A program made the translations under genes and the position numbers. A model generated the notes under the pieces. That model had not been told where the DNA came from. It was given only the letters and a program-made list of their open reading frames with translations, and ran no database searches. From positions 1 to 42,384 of IMG/VR virus record IMGVR_UViG_3300038318_000271: a DNA stretch of 42,384 nucleotides; one strand, 5' to 3'. Source of the DNA: a virus. Positions 375 through 33,484 of this stretch are shown piece after piece; position 1 is the stretch's first letter, and each line of letters opens with the position of its first letter.

Positions 375-462
375 CAATTCCCCGGCCTCCGGGGATGAAC
401 CGACATTGTACAACGAAAACGTTGTAAGGTGCGGTTGTTCCCCTCTCTGAGGGGATCCCTCG
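375..462 (+). CRISPR. Two type I-E-like 28-nt hairpin repeats flanking one 32-nt spacer (mini-array or repeat decoy)
   Basis: 375-402 CAATTCCCCGGCCTCCGGGGATGAACCG and 435-462 TTGTTCCCCTCTCTGAGGGGATCCCTCG. The stems show compensatory changes, and the gap 403-434 is exactly 32 nt. Confidence 0.5.
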
Positions 463-6167: not shown

Positions 6168-6461
6168 TTACACCCCTGCTGCCATCGCCCATCCGAGGAT
6201 CTCGCTTTCTGCCGAAGCCAGGTAGGCTCTCCCGGCGTCCGTGAGGACCTGCCGGGATCCCTGCCGTTCCAGGTACGCCGGTGACGGCAGCGCCCACCAG
6301 ACCACTTTCTCCCGGTATTCATACTCGGGGCGCGTGCCCATCTCGTCCTCGATCTCAACCTGCCGGATATCCCAGCGGCAAAGGATCCTGACGGATCCGT
6401 TCTTGACTACGTCGATACCGATCGCCGTCGGCTCGACGGTGCTTCTAACCAGTTTGGACAT
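6168..6461 (-). CDS. Hypothetical protein (tail module)
   Basis: 97-aa ORF. Its 5' end overlaps the RT 3' end by 55 nt. Confidence 0.5.
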   Translation of the reverse strand: MSKLVRSTVEPTAIGIDVVKNGSVRILCRWDIRQVEIEDEMGTRPEYEYREKVVWWALPSPAYLERQGSRQVLTDAGRAYLASAESEILGWAMAAGV

Positions 6462-7498
6462 TTGATACCCTTCATTTCTACAGCATAGTCAACAGCGGTA
6501 CGGATCGCGGGGTTCTCGTAGAGATACGTCCGCGCAAAGTTGTAACAGTCACAATGTTTCAGCCACCCATGATACGCTCCTAACGAGCCCAGGATCTCGT
6601 CTGGGTTCATTGTCTGGTAGTTCTGCTCAATCTCGCGAACCCGCTTCTTGAGCCGCCGAGCGGAAGATTTTCTGAGGATCGTGTGCGTCCTAAACGAACG
6701 GTACCCGAGGAAGTCTACTCCGCATCGGTCGACCGGAAAGATCGATGTTTTCGGGTTCAACTTGAGCCCGAGCGTGTCGAAGTACTCCTCGATCCGGGGG
6801 AGGAGGTCCTGCAACCACCCCTTATCGCGATGCAGGATCACGCCATCGTCACAGTACCGAATGTAGTATCGCGCCCGAATTTTCTCCTTTAGCCAATGAT
6901 CAAACGGCGTCAGGTACAAGTTGCTGAAGTACTGGCTCAAGTAATTCCCGATCGGGACCCCGGCGTTCGGGGTGCTGTAGATCACGTTTCGGAGGATGCC
7001 GAGTACTCCCGGATCCTTTACGGTCCGTTGCACGATCTCGAATAACTTGTCCGGCCGAATTGATGGATAGAACTTCGATATGTCAAATTTCAGGCAGTAC
7101 CGGGTCTGGTCGGCATTCTTCAGGAACCGGTGGAGCCGATACGAGCCGGCGTGCAGCCCCTTCCCCGGGATCGCAGAGAACAGGCCGTGAATGAACAGCC
7201 GGTCCCAGATCCGCCGCATCACCTGCATGATCGCATGGTGCACGACCCTATCGGGGAGATACGGGAGTTTGAAGATCACCCGCTGCTTCGGTTCGTAGAC
7301 AATTTTCGTCGTGTAAGATGACGTCGTGAACGTCCCGCTGATGAGGGCCTCCTGGAGGTCTAAGAGGTACGGGTCCGGGTCGGCATCAACCATCCGAACA
7401 GCCTCGTAGTGCCCCTTCCCCTTACGGGCGTTCAGGTGCGCCAGGCGGAGGTTCTCTATCGAGACAAGCGTCGAGAAGAGGTTGCCCTGGCGTTTCAT
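6407..7498 (-). CDS. Diversity-generating retroelement reverse transcriptase
   Basis: RT motifs include the DGR-specific PIGNYLSQYFSNLYL (I/LGxxxSQ) and the catalytic YCDD. Lies immediately 3' of the TR. Confidence 0.93.
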   Translation of the reverse strand: MKRQGNLFSTLVSIENLRLAHLNARKGKGHYEAVRMVDADPDPYLLDLQEALISGTFTTSSYTTKIVYEPKQRVIFKLPYLPDRVVHHAIMQVMRRIWDRLFIHGLFSAIPGKGLHAGSYRLHRFLKNADQTRYCLKFDISKFYPSIRPDKLFEIVQRTVKDPGVLGILRNVIYSTPNAGVPIGNYLSQYFSNLYLTPFDHWLKEKIRARYYIRYCDDGVILHRDKGWLQDLLPRIEEYFDTLGLKLNPKTSIFPVDRCGVDFLGYRSFRTHTILRKSSARRLKKRVREIEQNYQTMNPDEILGSLGAYHGWLKHCDCYNFARTYLYENPAIRTAVDYAVEMKGIKCPNWLEAPSSRRRSVST

Positions 7499-22297: not shown

Positions 22298-22370
22298 AAC
22301 CGCCGGAGGGACTCGAACCCCCTGCCCCCCGGTTACAGATCCGGCGCGCTGCCGGTAGCGCCTCGGCGGC
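22298..22370 (-). tRNA. tRNA-like gene with a non-canonical anticodon arm
   Basis: Hand fold: acceptor GCCGCCG/CGGCGGU, D arm GCGC-UACCGGCA-GCGC, T arm GGGGG-UUCGAGU-CCCUC. The anticodon arm has only a 4-bp stem CCGG/CCGG with an 8-nt loop AUCUGUAA. Followed by TTTTT. It fills a 95-nt intergenic gap. Confidence 0.5.
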
Positions 22371-23800: not shown

Positions 23801-23865
23801 TCTCTTTCACCTCTTACAATAATTACATTAGATGTAATAATATAAATAAGTATCGTAGGTTGAGA

Positions 23866-27526: not shown

Positions 27527-27578
27527 TCAGAGACCCCCTGTAGAACTGGGGCAGGAAGGGAACGAAGGATCGTAACTT

Positions 27579-27926
27579 TTTCTATACGCGCGTATAGGAA
27601 AAATCATGATCTTAAATGCCATTCCTGCCCTGACATCATTTTGGGGCACGAAAGGCACGAAATTCCGGAAAGTATCTTGCAACCCTGTAGTTCCAGAACT
27701 CCCGCTACCTCGTGCCCTTCGTGCCCGGCCCCTGACTTGGGGCATGTAGGGCATGAAAAACCGGAAACTTTTTTGGAGTCCCGTAACTCTCGGAAACTCT
27801 CGAATCTTCGTGCCTTTCGTGCCCGGCCCCTGACTTGGGGCATGTAGGGCATGAAAAACCGGAAACTTTTTTGAGGTCGGGAGTTCCAGAACTCCCGCTA
27901 CCTCGTGCCTTTCGTGCCCTGACATC
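27579..27926. repeat. Iteron-rich putative replication origin
   Basis: 16-bp palindrome ctatacgcgcgtatag at 27582-27597. Four dyads of TTCGTGCC at 27645-27661 (inverted), 27710-27726, 27807-27824 and 27902-27919. A 58-bp direct repeat at 27718-27775 and 27816-27873. A 28-bp repeat at 27689-27716 and 27882-27909. A/T tracts are also present. Confidence 0.6.
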
Positions 27927-30185
27927 TCAGAGCATCCCCTGTGCTGACCCTGCTGCTGCATCCCTTCCTGCCTCCATTGTGTTCTTGATCCTGAGTCCTT
28001 CCCATACCCATGCCCCGCCCATCTTCCGCTCCCCGAACTGCTTCTCCCGAAGATACTTGATCAGCATCCGGTTCGAGACTGGGCGCTCGCTCTCGTCCTC
28101 GCACCACTTGGTATAGATTTTGTAGAGCACCGCCCGCTCGATCGTCCCTATCGGCTCCGCGACCATCTCGTCGGCGAGGAACCGCCCGATCACATCGTTC
28201 TCTGAGCGGAACCGCTGCGTCGCCGCAACCACCTTCGTCGGAGGGCAGAGCCGCCTGCCATTCTCATAGTACCGCCGAAGCCCGGCAAGACACCAGTTCA
28301 AAATCCCGGCCCCTTCCGCCTCTAGGTGTTCGAGGATGCGCGGGTCGCGCCGGGCCTCCGGGATCGTCACCACGAACGGCAACAGCCAGAGCCGCCGCCA
28401 GATACCCTCGTCCGTCCCCCGGATCCGGGGCTCGTGGTTCGTCGCGAGGAAGATCTTCGCGCCGGGCTTGAACTCGAACTCGTTTTCGTAGAGCCGCCGC
28501 ACCGTGACCACATCGTCGCCGGTGAGCTGTTTCACCACGCCTTCTGCGAGATACGCGCCGCTCTCCCCTTCTGACGCCGTAACCATCCGCGCCCCTTTTA
28601 GGCGGGCAAGGTCCGACCGCGGCCCCTCGTTCCGCCGCACCATCAGGCTCTCAGCGGCGATATTGACCGCGTAATCCTCCCATACGCGGGCCAGCGCCCC
28701 GATCGTCACACTCTTCCCATTCTTCCCGATGCCGTAGAGGATCGCCATGATCTGCTCAGGGTTCTCCTGTAGGAGGGCGTATCCACAGAGTTCCTGGAAT
28801 CCGCGAATATACTCTCCATCACCGGCGAACACCAGGTTCAGGTGCTCAAGCCAGGTTGGGCACTCGGCCGCCGGATCGTAGGTCACCCCACAGCATTTCG
28901 TGAGCAGGTCCTCCCGCCGCGCCTCCCGAAACTCCATGGTATCGAGATCCAGCGTGCCGTTCCGACAGTTCCAGAGGTTCTGGCGGGCGTCTAGCTGCTC
29001 AGGCGTCACCGCGACCGCCGGGCTCGCGCACTCGATCATGGCCCGCAGCCGGGGCAGCATCCCGGACGCAACCGCCCACTTCCCAACCTTCTCCCGCCGG
29101 TCGTCGCTGGCCGTTGCGGCCTCGATATAGATCGTGCGGCAGACGCGCTTCGCGACCGCCAGCATACGCCGCGTCTCGTCCCGCTCCCATCGGATGCCGG
29201 ACCAGACGTACCATGCCCGCTCCGCGTCACAGTAGCGGATCGAGTCCCGGTATTGCGCGACCAGCCGAGAACCGTTGCCGTCGTCGGTGCAGTCGAACTC
29301 CTGCGTCACCGGGGGCGGCGTCGGGTCGGGCAGGTCAACGCCGACGTTGATGACATACTGGATCGTCCGGGCATCGCGATACCCCCCCTCCCGCACAATC
29401 GCTGCCGCCGACCGCCGCCGCACTTCTGCGATCATATCGGGATGCAGGAGCATGGTCCGGAGGAGCGATCGGGCTTCGGCCTCGGAGAGGTCGTTCGGGT
29501 CCGGCACCGGGTCGGGGTAGATCTTCGCCCACTCTCGGATCGCGGTAACTACCCGACCCCCCGTCCACCCGTCGATGAGGTGCAGCGGGATCGCGGCCTC
29601 GGGAATGGCGGGGTCCATAGTAGGCGTGGATACCCGAGTTTCCGTGCCGCTCTGAGGACCCAGATCGTTCGCAGGCTCTGTCCCCCCTCCATCCGGCGAC
29701 CCATCCGGCGCCCTCGCACCGGAGCAATCGACAGTGCAACCCACGTCTCGCAGCGCCACGGGTTCCGGTGCCCCGGCAACCGTCGCCGCCGCCGGACAGT
29801 CAGAGGCCTCTGATCTGTCCCCTTCGCTCGATTTCTCCCAATTCGCATCGCATATCATCTCCCAAAATCGCCCTATCAGCGCCCCCGCGATCCACGCAGC
29901 CTTGCCTGCATCGAGCGCCGCCTGCACCTCCGCTGGCCACCGGCCGCCGAGCAGCACCTCCACCCCGTCCCGGGTGCGGCGGTTGCCGTTCGGCATCCAG
30001 TCCGTCTGGAGCGGGATATATGCCGCATCCTCGGCCGCGACCGTGATGCCAGTCCATCCCGCGACCCGGGCGAGGATCTCCTGCCGCTCGTGATGCGTCG
30101 CAGCCGGGAACGGTTTCCGCAGCACTTCGAGCGCGTCGTGAAACGCTGTTGACTCGTAGGGGATCTTTAGAACAATGGAACTCAC
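27927..30185 (-). CDS. D5/P4-type primase-helicase (SF3 helicase with D5_N-like domain)
   Basis: Walker A motif GIGKNGKS. Resembles the phage/plasmid primase P4-family C-terminal region (NLWNCRNGTLDL...TNHEPRIRGTDEGIWRR). Start proposed at the GTG at 30185 (GTGA overlap). The maximal ORF extends to 30302. Confidence 0.85.
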   Translation of the reverse strand: MSSIVLKIPYESTAFHDALEVLRKPFPAATHHERQEILARVAGWTGITVAAEDAAYIPLQTDWMPNGNRRTRDGVEVLLGGRWPAEVQAALDAGKAAWIAGALIGRFWEMICDANWEKSSEGDRSEASDCPAAATVAGAPEPVALRDVGCTVDCSGARAPDGSPDGGGTEPANDLGPQSGTETRVSTPTMDPAIPEAAIPLHLIDGWTGGRVVTAIREWAKIYPDPVPDPNDLSEAEARSLLRTMLLHPDMIAEVRRRSAAAIVREGGYRDARTIQYVINVGVDLPDPTPPPVTQEFDCTDDGNGSRLVAQYRDSIRYCDAERAWYVWSGIRWERDETRRMLAVAKRVCRTIYIEAATASDDRREKVGKWAVASGMLPRLRAMIECASPAVAVTPEQLDARQNLWNCRNGTLDLDTMEFREARREDLLTKCCGVTYDPAAECPTWLEHLNLVFAGDGEYIRGFQELCGYALLQENPEQIMAILYGIGKNGKSVTIGALARVWEDYAVNIAAESLMVRRNEGPRSDLARLKGARMVTASEGESGAYLAEGVVKQLTGDDVVTVRRLYENEFEFKPGAKIFLATNHEPRIRGTDEGIWRRLWLLPFVVTIPEARRDPRILEHLEAEGAGILNWCLAGLRRYYENGRRLCPPTKVVAATQRFRSENDVIGRFLADEMVAEPIGTIERAVLYKIYTKWCEDESERPVSNRMLIKYLREKQFGERKMGGAWVWEGLRIKNTMEAGRDAAAGSAQGML

Positions 30186-30376
30186 TGTGACGCCCCCTTG
30201 CGGGCGAAATATTCCTGCACGTGGTAGCACCGCTCCCGGAGTATCGCTACGTTGCTGCACTTGATCCCGGTCGGCGAGTGCTGCCGGCAGAACCAGTCCC
30301 ACTCGCCTTTTCGGTCATCGTAGGTCGGCCACCGGCAACCGAGACAGTAATCGGGGGGCATCAGGTCCCCGGTCAC
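30182..30376 (-). CDS. Small Cys-rich protein
   Basis: 64 aa, with CLGC...C...C cysteines. ATGA/GTGA-coupled. Confidence 0.55.
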   Translation of the reverse strand: MTGDLMPPDYCLGCRWPTYDDRKGEWDWFCRQHSPTGIKCSNVAILRERCYHVQEYFARKGASQ

Positions 30377-31107: not shown

Positions 31108-31322
31108 TAATAATCGCCTCCTGAAATTGGCGCCATTTCCGGGCGCGTCGTCGTCATCTTCGGGCACGTCGCGGTCTGCCGGAACGTCGTCCCCGACACC
31201 CCACAGACCCGGATCGTCCGGTCGCGATACTGTCGAATCTCAACATCCTGGCACCCGAAACAGTCCCGCGCGGACGGCCGCACCCCGCCCCGGATCCGGG
31301 CGGGAACGTAGTCATCGCTCAC
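31107..31322 (-). CDS. Small CxxC protein, paralog A
   Basis: GTG start. The sequence SDDYVPARIRGGVRPSARDCFGCQDVEIRQYRDRTIRVCGVSGTTFRQT is near-identical to the product of 33236..33484. Confidence 0.55.
   Translation of the reverse strand: MSDDYVPARIRGGVRPSARDCFGCQDVEIRQYRDRTIRVCGVSGTTFRQTATCPKMTTTRPEMAPISGGDY
31174..31301. repeat. 128-bp near-identical dispersed repeat, copy A (partner 33336..33463)
   Basis: Hand alignment shows 2 mismatches in 128 bp. The flanks diverge. Confidence 0.85.
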
Positions 31323-33235: not shown

Positions 33236-33484
33236 TCACTCGTGTAATGCTGTGGTCGTCCGGGCGGGCCGGTCAACTGCCAGGGAGACGGTCCGCTCGT
33301 CCATGTTCTTCTTGCTCAACTTCGGGCATACAGGAGTCTGCCGGAACGTCGTCCCCGACACCCCACAGACCCGGATCGTCCGGTCGCGATACTGTCGAAT
33401 CTCAAGATCCTGGCAGCCGAAACAGTCCCGCGCGGACGGCCGCACCCCGCCCCGGATCCGGGCAGGGATGTAGGGGTCGCTCAT
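33236..33484 (-). CDS. Small CxxC protein, paralog B
   Basis: Start at the ATG at 33484 (ATGA overlap). Reads MSDPYIPARIRGGVRPSARDCFGCQDLEIRQYRDRTIRVCGVSGTTFRQT... Confidence 0.55.
   Translation of the reverse strand: MSDPYIPARIRGGVRPSARDCFGCQDLEIRQYRDRTIRVCGVSGTTFRQTPVCPKLSKKNMDERTVSLAVDRPARTTTALHE
33336..33463. repeat. 128-bp near-identical dispersed repeat, copy B (partner 31174..31301)
   Basis: See copy A. Confidence 0.85.

Follow-up and report, generated by a model that had tools for sequence, protein, structure and literature searches.

The closest described counterparts of the element discussed here, a locus around positions 324-470 of the viral genome IMGVR_UViG_3300038318_000271 from IMG/VR (positions 1 to 42,384 of the record; hereafter the window, that is, the whole stretch of 42,384 nucleotides analysed), are small genetic elements built from the repeats of CRISPR (short palindromic repeats that are clustered and regularly interspaced). 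In particular, Cracrs are viral RNAs resembling CRISPR RNAs (crRNAs) that repress cas promoters, as shown experimentally in bacterial phages, including a type I-E array directed against the casA promoter (preprint). In the same preprint, a Cracr is defined by a spacer part that matches the spacer part of host CreR or CreA over at least 9 positions proximal to the protospacer-adjacent motif (PAM), and Cracr psi-repeats with a loop one nucleotide shorter are also noted. CreR elements themselves are typically found upstream of type I cas genes, and conservation limited to the PAM-proximal part is regarded as the signature of crRNA-like regulatory RNAs, which bind their target without cleavage (preprint). 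Viral crRNA-like anti-CRISPR RNAs are, in other words, known already, from the preprint and from bacterial hosts only. Racrs are solitary repeat units that need no spacer and act via aberrant Cas subcomplexes, as described for RacrIC1 and RacrIE1/2 (Camara-Wilpert et al. 2023, PMC10651486). Finally, viruses of Sulfolobales carry mini-arrays that serve to exclude other viruses, the whole length of their spacers being matched in related viruses (Medvedeva et al. 2019, PMC6858448).

Our reading of the window locus, to which we assign a probability of about 0.65, is that it encodes a viral crRNA-like anti-CRISPR RNA of the Cracr kind, which would be a copy of a CreR-type mini-array of a methanogen host and would repress the cse1-cas operon of the type I-E system of that host. 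Like the Cracrs, the locus is viral and lies outside a cas locus, and its degenerate repeats flank a guide homologous to that of host CreR; its match to a cas promoter is partial and PAM-proximal, its loop is one nucleotide below the canonical one, and its predicted action is double, repression combined with competition. Unlike the Cracrs, it belongs to a virus of an archaeal methanogen (the 219 published candidates target bacteria of three phyla), its guide is a full 32 nt long (21-24 nt in the published I-E examples), and it is joined in one unit with a repeat copy of another subtype, I-C, the co-encoded Cracrs of the literature being in every case directed at variants of a single type; it is, moreover, known from sequence analysis. 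With CreR, as summarised in the preprint, it shares descent with mini-arrays of Methanoculleus, having the same 28-32-28 geometry, handle family and promoter site and a related guide, but it resides on a virus with no cas genes nearby, and its seed reads ACATT against ATATC and GTATC in the three host guides recovered. The Racrs (PMC10651486) are matched in the viral mimicry of repeats of the host subtypes and, as regards the I-C copy and one relative (contig L099), in the solitary layout; unlike them, the I-E part has a second repeat and a guide under target-like constraint. As in the Sulfolobales viruses, a one-spacer array with host-type repeats occurs in an archaeal virus without cas genes, but here the match is a partial one to a host promoter, with no viral protospacer in the collections searched. 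No prior description of such an element for Methanoculleus viruses was found in the literature.

The features of the locus are the following.

281-300, + strand: candidate archaeal TATA-like boxes, TATAAAG at 281-287 and CTTTTATC at 293-300, suitably placed for a putative start at or just before 324.
324-354, + strand: copy of a type I-C CRISPR repeat, GTCGCACCCCCGCGGGCGCGTGGATTGAAAT, with a hairpin at 326-343 and an 11-nt handle, TGGATTGAAAT, at 344-354.
355-374, + strand: conserved flank, CATACTCTATTGCCTCAGGA, which may be the 5' part of an I-C guide-like segment.
375-402, + strand: I-E psi-repeat 1, CAATTCCCCGGCCTCCGGGGATGAACCG, with a hairpin at 379-395 followed by ATGAACCG at 395-402, the predicted 8-nt 5' handle.
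403-434, + strand: 32-nt spacer-like guide (psi-spacer), ACATTGTACAACGAAAACGTTGTAAGGTGCGG, conserved and target-matching at 403-417, lineage-specific and pairing back on the 5' half at 418-434.
435-462, + strand: I-E psi-repeat 2, TTGTTCCCCTCTCTGAGGGGATCCCTCG, with a hairpin at 439-455, the predicted Cas6e 3' hairpin, and a degenerate 3' tail.
463-470, + strand: T-run ATTTTAGT, a terminator-like site and the putative transcript end.

The two 28-nt elements of the I-E-type unit and the gap of exactly 32 nt between them had been placed by an earlier note on this DNA, and both coordinates and sequences proved exact. Of the hairpin architecture given there, the 3-nt loops stood, and the stems, described as 6 bp, fold as 7 bp (a CCCC core plus a U-A closing pair), with energies of -12.9 and -11.7 kcal/mol for psi-repeats 1 and 2. 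The extent 375-462 is likewise correct for the I-E part, but the I-C repeat copy at 324-354, and hence the composite nature of the locus, had been overlooked. The pattern TTCCCC-N7/8-GGGGAT occurs twice in the window, both times at this locus, with 0.04 occurrences expected and two matches in 0 of 100 shuffles. By direct count, the psi-repeats are identical at 16/28 positions; that is, they are not the near-identical repeats of an I-E array but degenerate psi-repeats as in crRNA-like RNA genes. The I-E repeat family is characterised by a length of about 28-29 nt, a G+C-rich hairpin and the 3' end ...GGGGAT(A/G)AACCG. Repeat 1 reads TTCCCC-N7-GGGGATGAACCG, with 18 nt identical to Methanoculleus repeats, and repeat 2 keeps GTTCCCC...GGGGAT. 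The 32 nt of the spacer are the canonical length, found also in the viral relatives L088, L098 and L100 and in the host mini-array of locus L224, and the 32-mer itself folds as an imperfect hairpin (-9.8 kcal/mol), as the note had observed. With its two copies 32 nt apart, 375-462 differs from the solitary repeat of a Racr, for which a partner repeat is lacking within about 100 bp, a layout that the I-C copy does have. No Rfam family reaches its gathering score in the region, and psi-repeat 2 gives a weak match to CRISPR-DR58 (E=1.3).

The identification of the host is based on the viral genome as a whole. The first 161 nt of the window recur exactly at its end, a terminal direct repeat from which the window is taken as a complete, circularly permuted genome of 42,223 bp. 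In contig L002, an integrated copy of the virus adjoins genes for coenzyme F430 synthesis, which indicates a methanogen host, and the tape-measure protein is 52% identical to its counterpart in the Methanoculleus virus Blf4, which narrows the host to Methanoculleus or one of its close relatives. The window proteins tested with Pfam include no Cas family, in agreement with the earlier note, and small open reading frames (ORFs) without matches could still encode one; given the terminal repeat and these proteins, the locus is virus-encoded and outside a CRISPR-Cas locus. The virus is a temperate, cas-less siphovirus of Methanoculleus, and it is present in several biogas and fermentation metagenomes. 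Provirus and virus are contained in the samples ENA ERZ27283064 and ERZ724039 and SRR1562008/9, and the true host is expected to be the MAG (metagenome-assembled genome) to which contig ERZ27283064 k119_148489 belongs.

The same genus has type I-E systems with closely similar repeats. A search with TTCCCC-N7-GGGGATGAACCG, taking one genome per species, matched several Methanomicrobiales; among them, Methanoculleus sp. NL_3.1 has a genuine array with the repeat GCGTTCCCCATGCACGTGGGGATGAACCG and 32-nt spacers. The I-E repeat consensus of the Methanoculleus clade is (G/C)(A/C/T)GTTCCCCATG(C/T)ACGTGGGGAT(G/T)AACCG, and complete cas3-cse1-cse2-cas7-cas5-cas6e-cas1-cas2 operons accompanied by such arrays occur in several Methanoculleus-clade genomes and in digester metagenomes. 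Specifically, the viral handle ATGAACCG is the 3' end of the Methanoculleus I-E repeats GCGTTCCCCATG(C/T)ACGTGGGGATGAACCG and GTGTTCCCCATGCACGTGGGGATGAACCG. The earlier note had compared this handle with that of E. coli; the likeness goes further, being an identity with the host genus, and since both the handle and the stem base are shared with that genus, it does not depend on the similarity to E. coli. Its view of a cas-less single-spacer mini-array of I-E geometry that must rely on host Cascade is likewise borne out by a host genus with I-E systems, the same handle and stem base, and the 28-32-28 arrangement.

Mini-arrays of this kind are found in the hosts themselves. Three I-E loci carry one upstream of cas3: L224 at 2847-2934, L230 at 2789-2877 (L230-232) and L233 at about 2422-2510. 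In L224, from Methanoculleus sp. Wushi-C6, it consists of ATGTTCCCCATCATATGGGGATAAACCG (28 nt), a 32-nt guide starting ATATCATACAACAAAG, and AAGTTCCCCATCATGTGGGGATGATCTG (28 nt); that is, it has the 28-32-28 geometry of the virus, with the same 3-nt loops, one base below those of canonical repeats. In type I Cascade, the guide base at each sixth position is turned outwards and leaves the target unread; matches are given here over the read positions. Each of the three host guides has a PAM-flanked site upstream of cse1, as follows.

L224: guide ATATCATACAACAAAG; site AAG followed by ATATCTTATAATAAG; 11/15 read positions over nt 1-18.
L230: guide ATATCGTACAACAAAG; site AAG followed by ATATCATACAATAAC; 12/12 read positions over nt 1-14, with mismatches at positions 6 and 12 only.
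L233: guide GTATCGTACAATGAAA; site ATG followed by GTATCATACAAAGAC; 12/13.

The sites of L224 and L230 begin 115 nt upstream of the cse1 start codon and overlap a TATA-like region; that of L233 lies directly 3' of the cse1 start as called, a start that is probably set too far upstream. In addition, guide and promoter site co-vary between the strains. These host elements, known here from sequence analysis only, are by every such criterion CreR-type autorepressors, for which no description in methanogens was found in the literature.

Other arrangements of I-E repeats were met in the same survey. In Methanoculleus sp. NL_3.1 (L032 253-480, - strand), the 28-nt psi-repeat that opens a canonical I-E array stands directly behind the PhoU/Pit genes and a promoter of CreR type, without intervening cas genes; the cas operon seems to have been deleted by recombination of the CreR repeat with the array. 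In a Methanomicrobiales metagenome-assembled genome (MAG; L030 11-2190), a mini-array with one spacer, its second repeat degenerate, comes directly after cas7-cas5-cas6e, and cas1 and cas2 are absent from the interval. Past the array trailers of L081 (about 990-1076, - strand) and L021 (6286-6375), remnants of two I-E repeats adjoin a DEDDh (RNase T-like) exonuclease gene; each L081 repeat departs from its viral counterpart at only 2 nt, and the viruses L098 and L100 share with L081 repeat 2 and part of the guide. These remnants were considered as regulators and rejected, because their guides are unrelated between the orthologous loci, which makes them probably old array ends. Finally, an unrelated viral contig of 49% G+C (L246 1275-1340) has two full I-E repeats 7 nt apart, that is, tandem units without a spacer.

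The guide of the virus is related to those of the host mini-arrays and matches a host promoter. Compared with the three host CreR-like guides, 10-12 of its first 15 nt are identical, the host guides differing at positions 1, 2 or 5, and in the relatives L098 and L100 the homology reaches the 3' end too (TCTG(G)TTCCTC). Two further promoter variants are present 115 nt upstream of cse1, AAG followed by ATATTTTATAATGAATGG in L239 and AAG followed by ACATTTTACCATGAATGA in L241, the latter being a Methanoculleus-clade I-E locus from an anaerobic digester with the array repeat GTGTTCCCCATGCACGTGGGGATGAACCG and the handle ATGAACCG; its CreR lies off the contig and so is not part of the guide comparison. 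At L241:370 (AAG plus ACATTTTACCATGAA), the window guide agrees at 12/13 read positions within nt 1-15, the seed (1-5, 7-8) being matched throughout, and at only 2/14 read positions of its remaining part, so that the 3' half is unmatched; this is the partial, PAM-flanked complementarity to a host cas promoter that is typical of a Cracr. At L239 it matches 11/13, and the guide of L098 matches L241 at 14/15 read positions over nt 1-18. A scan of methanogen loci covering 337,566 positions gave no non-self match of at least 11/13 other than the promoter sites of L241 and L239, both after AAG. The viral guide and the L241 promoter have ACATT in common; the recovered host guides have ATATC or GTATC, none of them ACATT, so that the virus appears to track one promoter variant and to be more than a frozen copy of the sampled hosts.

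Searched for other targets, the exact 32-mer recovered only a homologous locus in 2.9 million viral contigs, and with positions 6, 12 and 18 left free, these contigs and 241 million metagenome records yielded only homologous loci and, among the metagenome records, one AT-rich chance match. In neither the viral nor the metagenome contigs does the spacer fully or nearly fully match a PAM-flanked mobile element, and no second guide site exists within the virus itself. In the genome contigs, the matches listed for the PAM plus the 15-nt guide are chance matches in AT-rich bacteria. The P0015-type I-E loci of Methanoculleus (from the same sampling series as one viral relative) and the Wushi-C6 locus contain no match of at least 11/13, and a search for viral copies of the ATATC and GTATC guide variants returned unrelated bacterial elements only.

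Five further viral contigs carry the locus, which makes six viruses in all. The full I-E unit (repeat 1, 32-nt guide, repeat 2) is present in the window, L088, L098 and L100; L099 has repeat 1 only, without guide and repeat 2, and L092/L097 have no I-E part, with a hairpin and TTTTT after the I-C unit. The three versions of the guide are:

window and L088: ACATTGTACAACGAAAACGTTGTAAGGTGCGG
L098: ACATTATACAACGAATGTGCAGTCTGGTTCCT
L100: ACATTGTACAATGAACGTGCAGTCTGGTTCCT

Over nt 1-15, these vary at positions 6 and 12 only, both of them unread; by chance, exactly this pair of variable sites would be hit in the stretch with a probability of 1/105. The 3' halves diverge, with 7/17 identical between the window and L100. 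The parts needed for a mature crRNA, which the earlier note had thought best preserved, are indeed so. In particular, the handle ATGAACCG is invariant in 5/5 viruses with repeat 1, and the repeat-2 hairpin is kept in the relatives (one pair being changed on both sides), its 3' tail lost and replaced by a T-run, which in L098 and L100 begins directly 3' of the GGGGA of repeat 2. Substitutions in the repeat-1 stem retain pairing, as G-U or U-G, on the + strand only. Conservation of the spacer hairpin among related viruses, which the note had named as a sign of a structured RNA unrelated to CRISPR, was not found, folding of the relatives confining that hairpin to the lineage of the window. The upstream flanks are unrelated between lineages, and most have TATA-like, AT-rich boxes 20-45 nt before the I-C copy, at which the homology of the module among the viruses has its exact left boundary. 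Together with the T-runs, the boxes suggest one small + strand transcript of about 145 nt (about 324-467).

Of the I-C repeat copy at 324-354, 29 nt recur without a mismatch in the terminal repeat of a genuine array, and the whole is near-identical to GTCGCACCCTTCACGGGTGCGTGGATTGAAAT, the repeat of a 35-copy array in a Methanoculleus MAG; no other site of its kind occurs in the window. The repeat family has been published for the I-C systems of Bacillus halodurans and Bifidobacterium longum, and the I-C label, for the Methanoculleus array as for the viral copy, is taken solely from that family. In all six viruses the copy is present, with differing stems and the same 11-nt handle, and CATACTCTATTG after it is identical in five of the six. 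Moreover, a Methanoculleus I-C-type array has a degenerate repeat at its trailer end, and the segment after it is identical to the first 11 nt of the flank. No target for the flank was found in 551,642 positions of methanogen loci, which include no Methanoculleus I-C cas locus. The I-C copy with its flank is probably a counterpart, Racr or Cracr, directed at the second CRISPR type of the genus.

On these grounds, a mechanism can be proposed for the putative Cracr. A small non-coding + strand transcript, spanning about 324-467 and composed of CRISPR repeat mimics, would be made from the viral genome. Host Cas6e would cut both I-E hairpins to release an RNA of about 61 nt (395-454), with the handle AUGAACCG, the 32-nt guide and a 3' hairpin, which would assemble with host Cascade. 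Pairing of about 15 nt beside an AAG PAM would then hold Cascade on the TATA region of the cse1 promoter; as the pairing is partial and forms no full R-loop, Cas3 would not be recruited, and transcription of the cse1-cse2-cas7-cas5-cas6e operon would fall. In addition, the viral RNA, if abundant, may compete for Cas proteins with the crRNAs of immunity. The expected target in the true host is a PAM-flanked ACATTNTAC... or ACATTNTACAANGAA site 115 nt upstream of cse1. The I-C unit may work as a solitary-repeat decoy or as a guide against a second array type, in which case its promoter target would be expected to read TTC plus CATACTCTATT. A more tentative possibility, which we consider rather doubtful, is that one transcript of about 145 nt disarms two CRISPR-Cas types, each unit reprogramming its cognate effector onto its own cas promoter; the first I-E hairpin would then be both a Cas6e site and the 3' end of the I-C-type RNA.

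Several observations weigh against the Cracr reading. L241 was obtained from another metagenome, the recovered loci do not include the I-E locus of the true lysogenic host, and even this best target keeps one mismatch, at guide position 10. The P0015-type loci differ in their handle, ATTAACCG, and neither a CreR nor a match to the guide could be recognised in them; the strains of M. bourgensis studied so far have type I-U (I-G) and not I-E systems. The absence or truncation of the I-E part in L092/L097 and L099 indicates that the I-E guide is dispensable in some lineages. A covariation count over the six sequences gives 87.9% of cells paired, a value reached by 36/500 shuffles and hence not significant. 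In the hairpin described above, the seed region of the window guide is paired with its 3' half, an arrangement that could hinder loading or target binding. Lastly, the promoter match could in part be due to descent from a captured host CreR and not to current function.

This last point leads to the alternative that the locus is a pure decoy of the Racr kind, its mimics sequestering Cas6e/Cas7 (I-E) and Cas5c (I-C) and the guide likeness being an unused leftover of a captured CreR. The layout of L099, an I-C copy plus I-E repeat 1 only, is indeed the solitary-repeat layout of the validated RacrIC1 and RacrIE1/2, the I-C copy of the window is solitary too, and the guide of the window lineage folds back on its own seed. 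A decoy, however, predicts no constraint on the guide, and yet nt 1-15 have changed only at the unread positions 6 and 12, in contrast to a freely diverging 3' half; all three guide lineages have exactly 32 nt, and the ACATT common to the viral guide and the L241 promoter is in no recovered host CreR guide, all of which makes this explanation unlikely in our opinion. Among the functions offered by the earlier note, targeting of a host gene or a decoy action has gained support from the host I-E cse1 promoter, and exclusion of competing viruses has found none, as no protospacer turned up in the viral or metagenome collections. In fact, a classical virus-borne mini-CRISPR array, in which the 32-mer is a true spacer directing Cascade-Cas3 against a competing virus or plasmid (superinfection exclusion), would agree with the canonical repeat-spacer-repeat order, with the 32-nt spacer and with the mini-arrays known from interviral conflicts of archaeal viruses (PMC6858448); it is quite unlikely in view of the missing protospacer in viral contigs, metagenome records and the virus itself, of the conservation of only the 5' half of the spacer between lineages, and of strong matches limited to the host cas promoter.

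It is very unlikely that the locus is an inert passenger, namely a piece of a host CRISPR locus, from the array trailer or the CreR region, that recombined into the virus and drifts without function. Two-repeat remnants closely similar to it do exist in the hosts (those of L081 being 2 nt each from the viral repeats), the left boundary of homology among the viruses falls exactly at the I-C copy, and two relatives lack or truncate the I-E part. Against this, the locus occupies the same place in at least four viral lineages with different flanking genes, handles are invariant, hairpins maintained, the guide exactly 32 nt long and repeat 2 followed by T-runs across lineages, and the read positions in the guide's 5' half are spared by substitutions; imprecise excision at this site is ruled out by a provirus junction about 240 nt off. 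As for an origin unrelated to CRISPR, the hairpins could be seen as terminators, as an attachment site, or as a DNA operator or structured regulatory RNA serving the integrase or early genes, as the region has a divergent integrase gene on one side and an early operon on the other, palindromes occur in the guide (TTGTACAA in the window, CATTGTACAATG in L100), and element 2 scores as a terminator-like site. We regard this as highly improbable, because host CRISPR repeats are matched by 18 nt of element 1 and by the I-C copy throughout, the Rfam search gave no other family, and the spacer hairpin is not kept in the relatives. A role of the CRISPR-like region as attachment site for integration into host arrays was considered separately and rejected, the provirus-host junction in L002 lying at about window position 84.

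As regards the rest of the genome, Pfam identifies virion genes for a capsid, a large terminase, a tape measure and siphovirus tail proteins, together with a D5-type primase-helicase, RecT, an RNA ligase, a Dam methylase, a PDDEXK nuclease, a reverse transcriptase and a tyrosine integrase. The RNA locus sits in a 515-nt gap between the integrase gene (- strand, ending near 30-54) and a + strand operon that starts at 569. Through the integrase, no close relatives were found in the viral or genome collections. The exact integrase protein is not on record, and GenBank phages gave no DNA match to the region. The provirus junction (window about 55-90; L002 9500-9530) is not in a tRNA gene but falls right where a small host ORF (87 aa, winged-helix-like) begins. 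One further feature lies in the same gap, as context outside the RNA locus:

518-568, + strand: AT-rich promoter and ribosome-binding region of the downstream ORF 569-1096, kept in all relatives.

Its part 518-561 recurs inverted at 23806-23849 (75% over 44 nt), upstream of the terminase-side operon, and is probably a shared viral promoter or operator. Elsewhere, the reverse transcriptase gene (6407-7498, - strand, Pfam RVT_1) stands beside a 115-nt repeat pair (7648-7762/8142-8256, 81% identical), with the tail genes close by; template and variable repeat of a diversity-generating retroelement are arranged in this way. Three tandem copies of a unit of about 97 nt at 27601-27919 and a 43-nt palindrome at 27549-27630 adjoin the D5-type primase-helicase gene (27927-30302) and may be a replication origin with iterons. 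A direct repeat of 168 nt, 91% identical, is located at 31154-31321 and 33316-33483, 2.2 kb apart, in the region of replication and modification genes. Finally, a tRNA-like gene at 22298-22370 (- strand) scores 35.7 bits with the Rfam tRNA model and has 75% G+C, and ARAGORN gives it an unassignable four-base anticodon (ctgt).

If the Cracr reading is true, RNA-guided self-silencing of CRISPR-Cas by viruses would reach archaea, namely the methanogens of biogas reactors, and the case would point to CreR-type autoregulation in Methanoculleus I-E systems. The reading makes precise predictions: an RNA of about 61 nt, the 15-nt promoter site named above and an AAG PAM. Mimics of two subtypes within one small transcript would be a layout not described for these RNAs, and if the two-type reading also holds, this would represent the first Cracr of an archaeal virus, the first cross-type Cracr fusion and the first evidence of CreR autoregulation in methanogen I-E systems. 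In addition, the locus may provide a compact natural CRISPR interference guide for the methanogen I-E system. Viruses appear to track particular variants of host promoters. The Cracr reading, if true, would have a bearing on the dynamics of viruses and hosts in anaerobic digesters.

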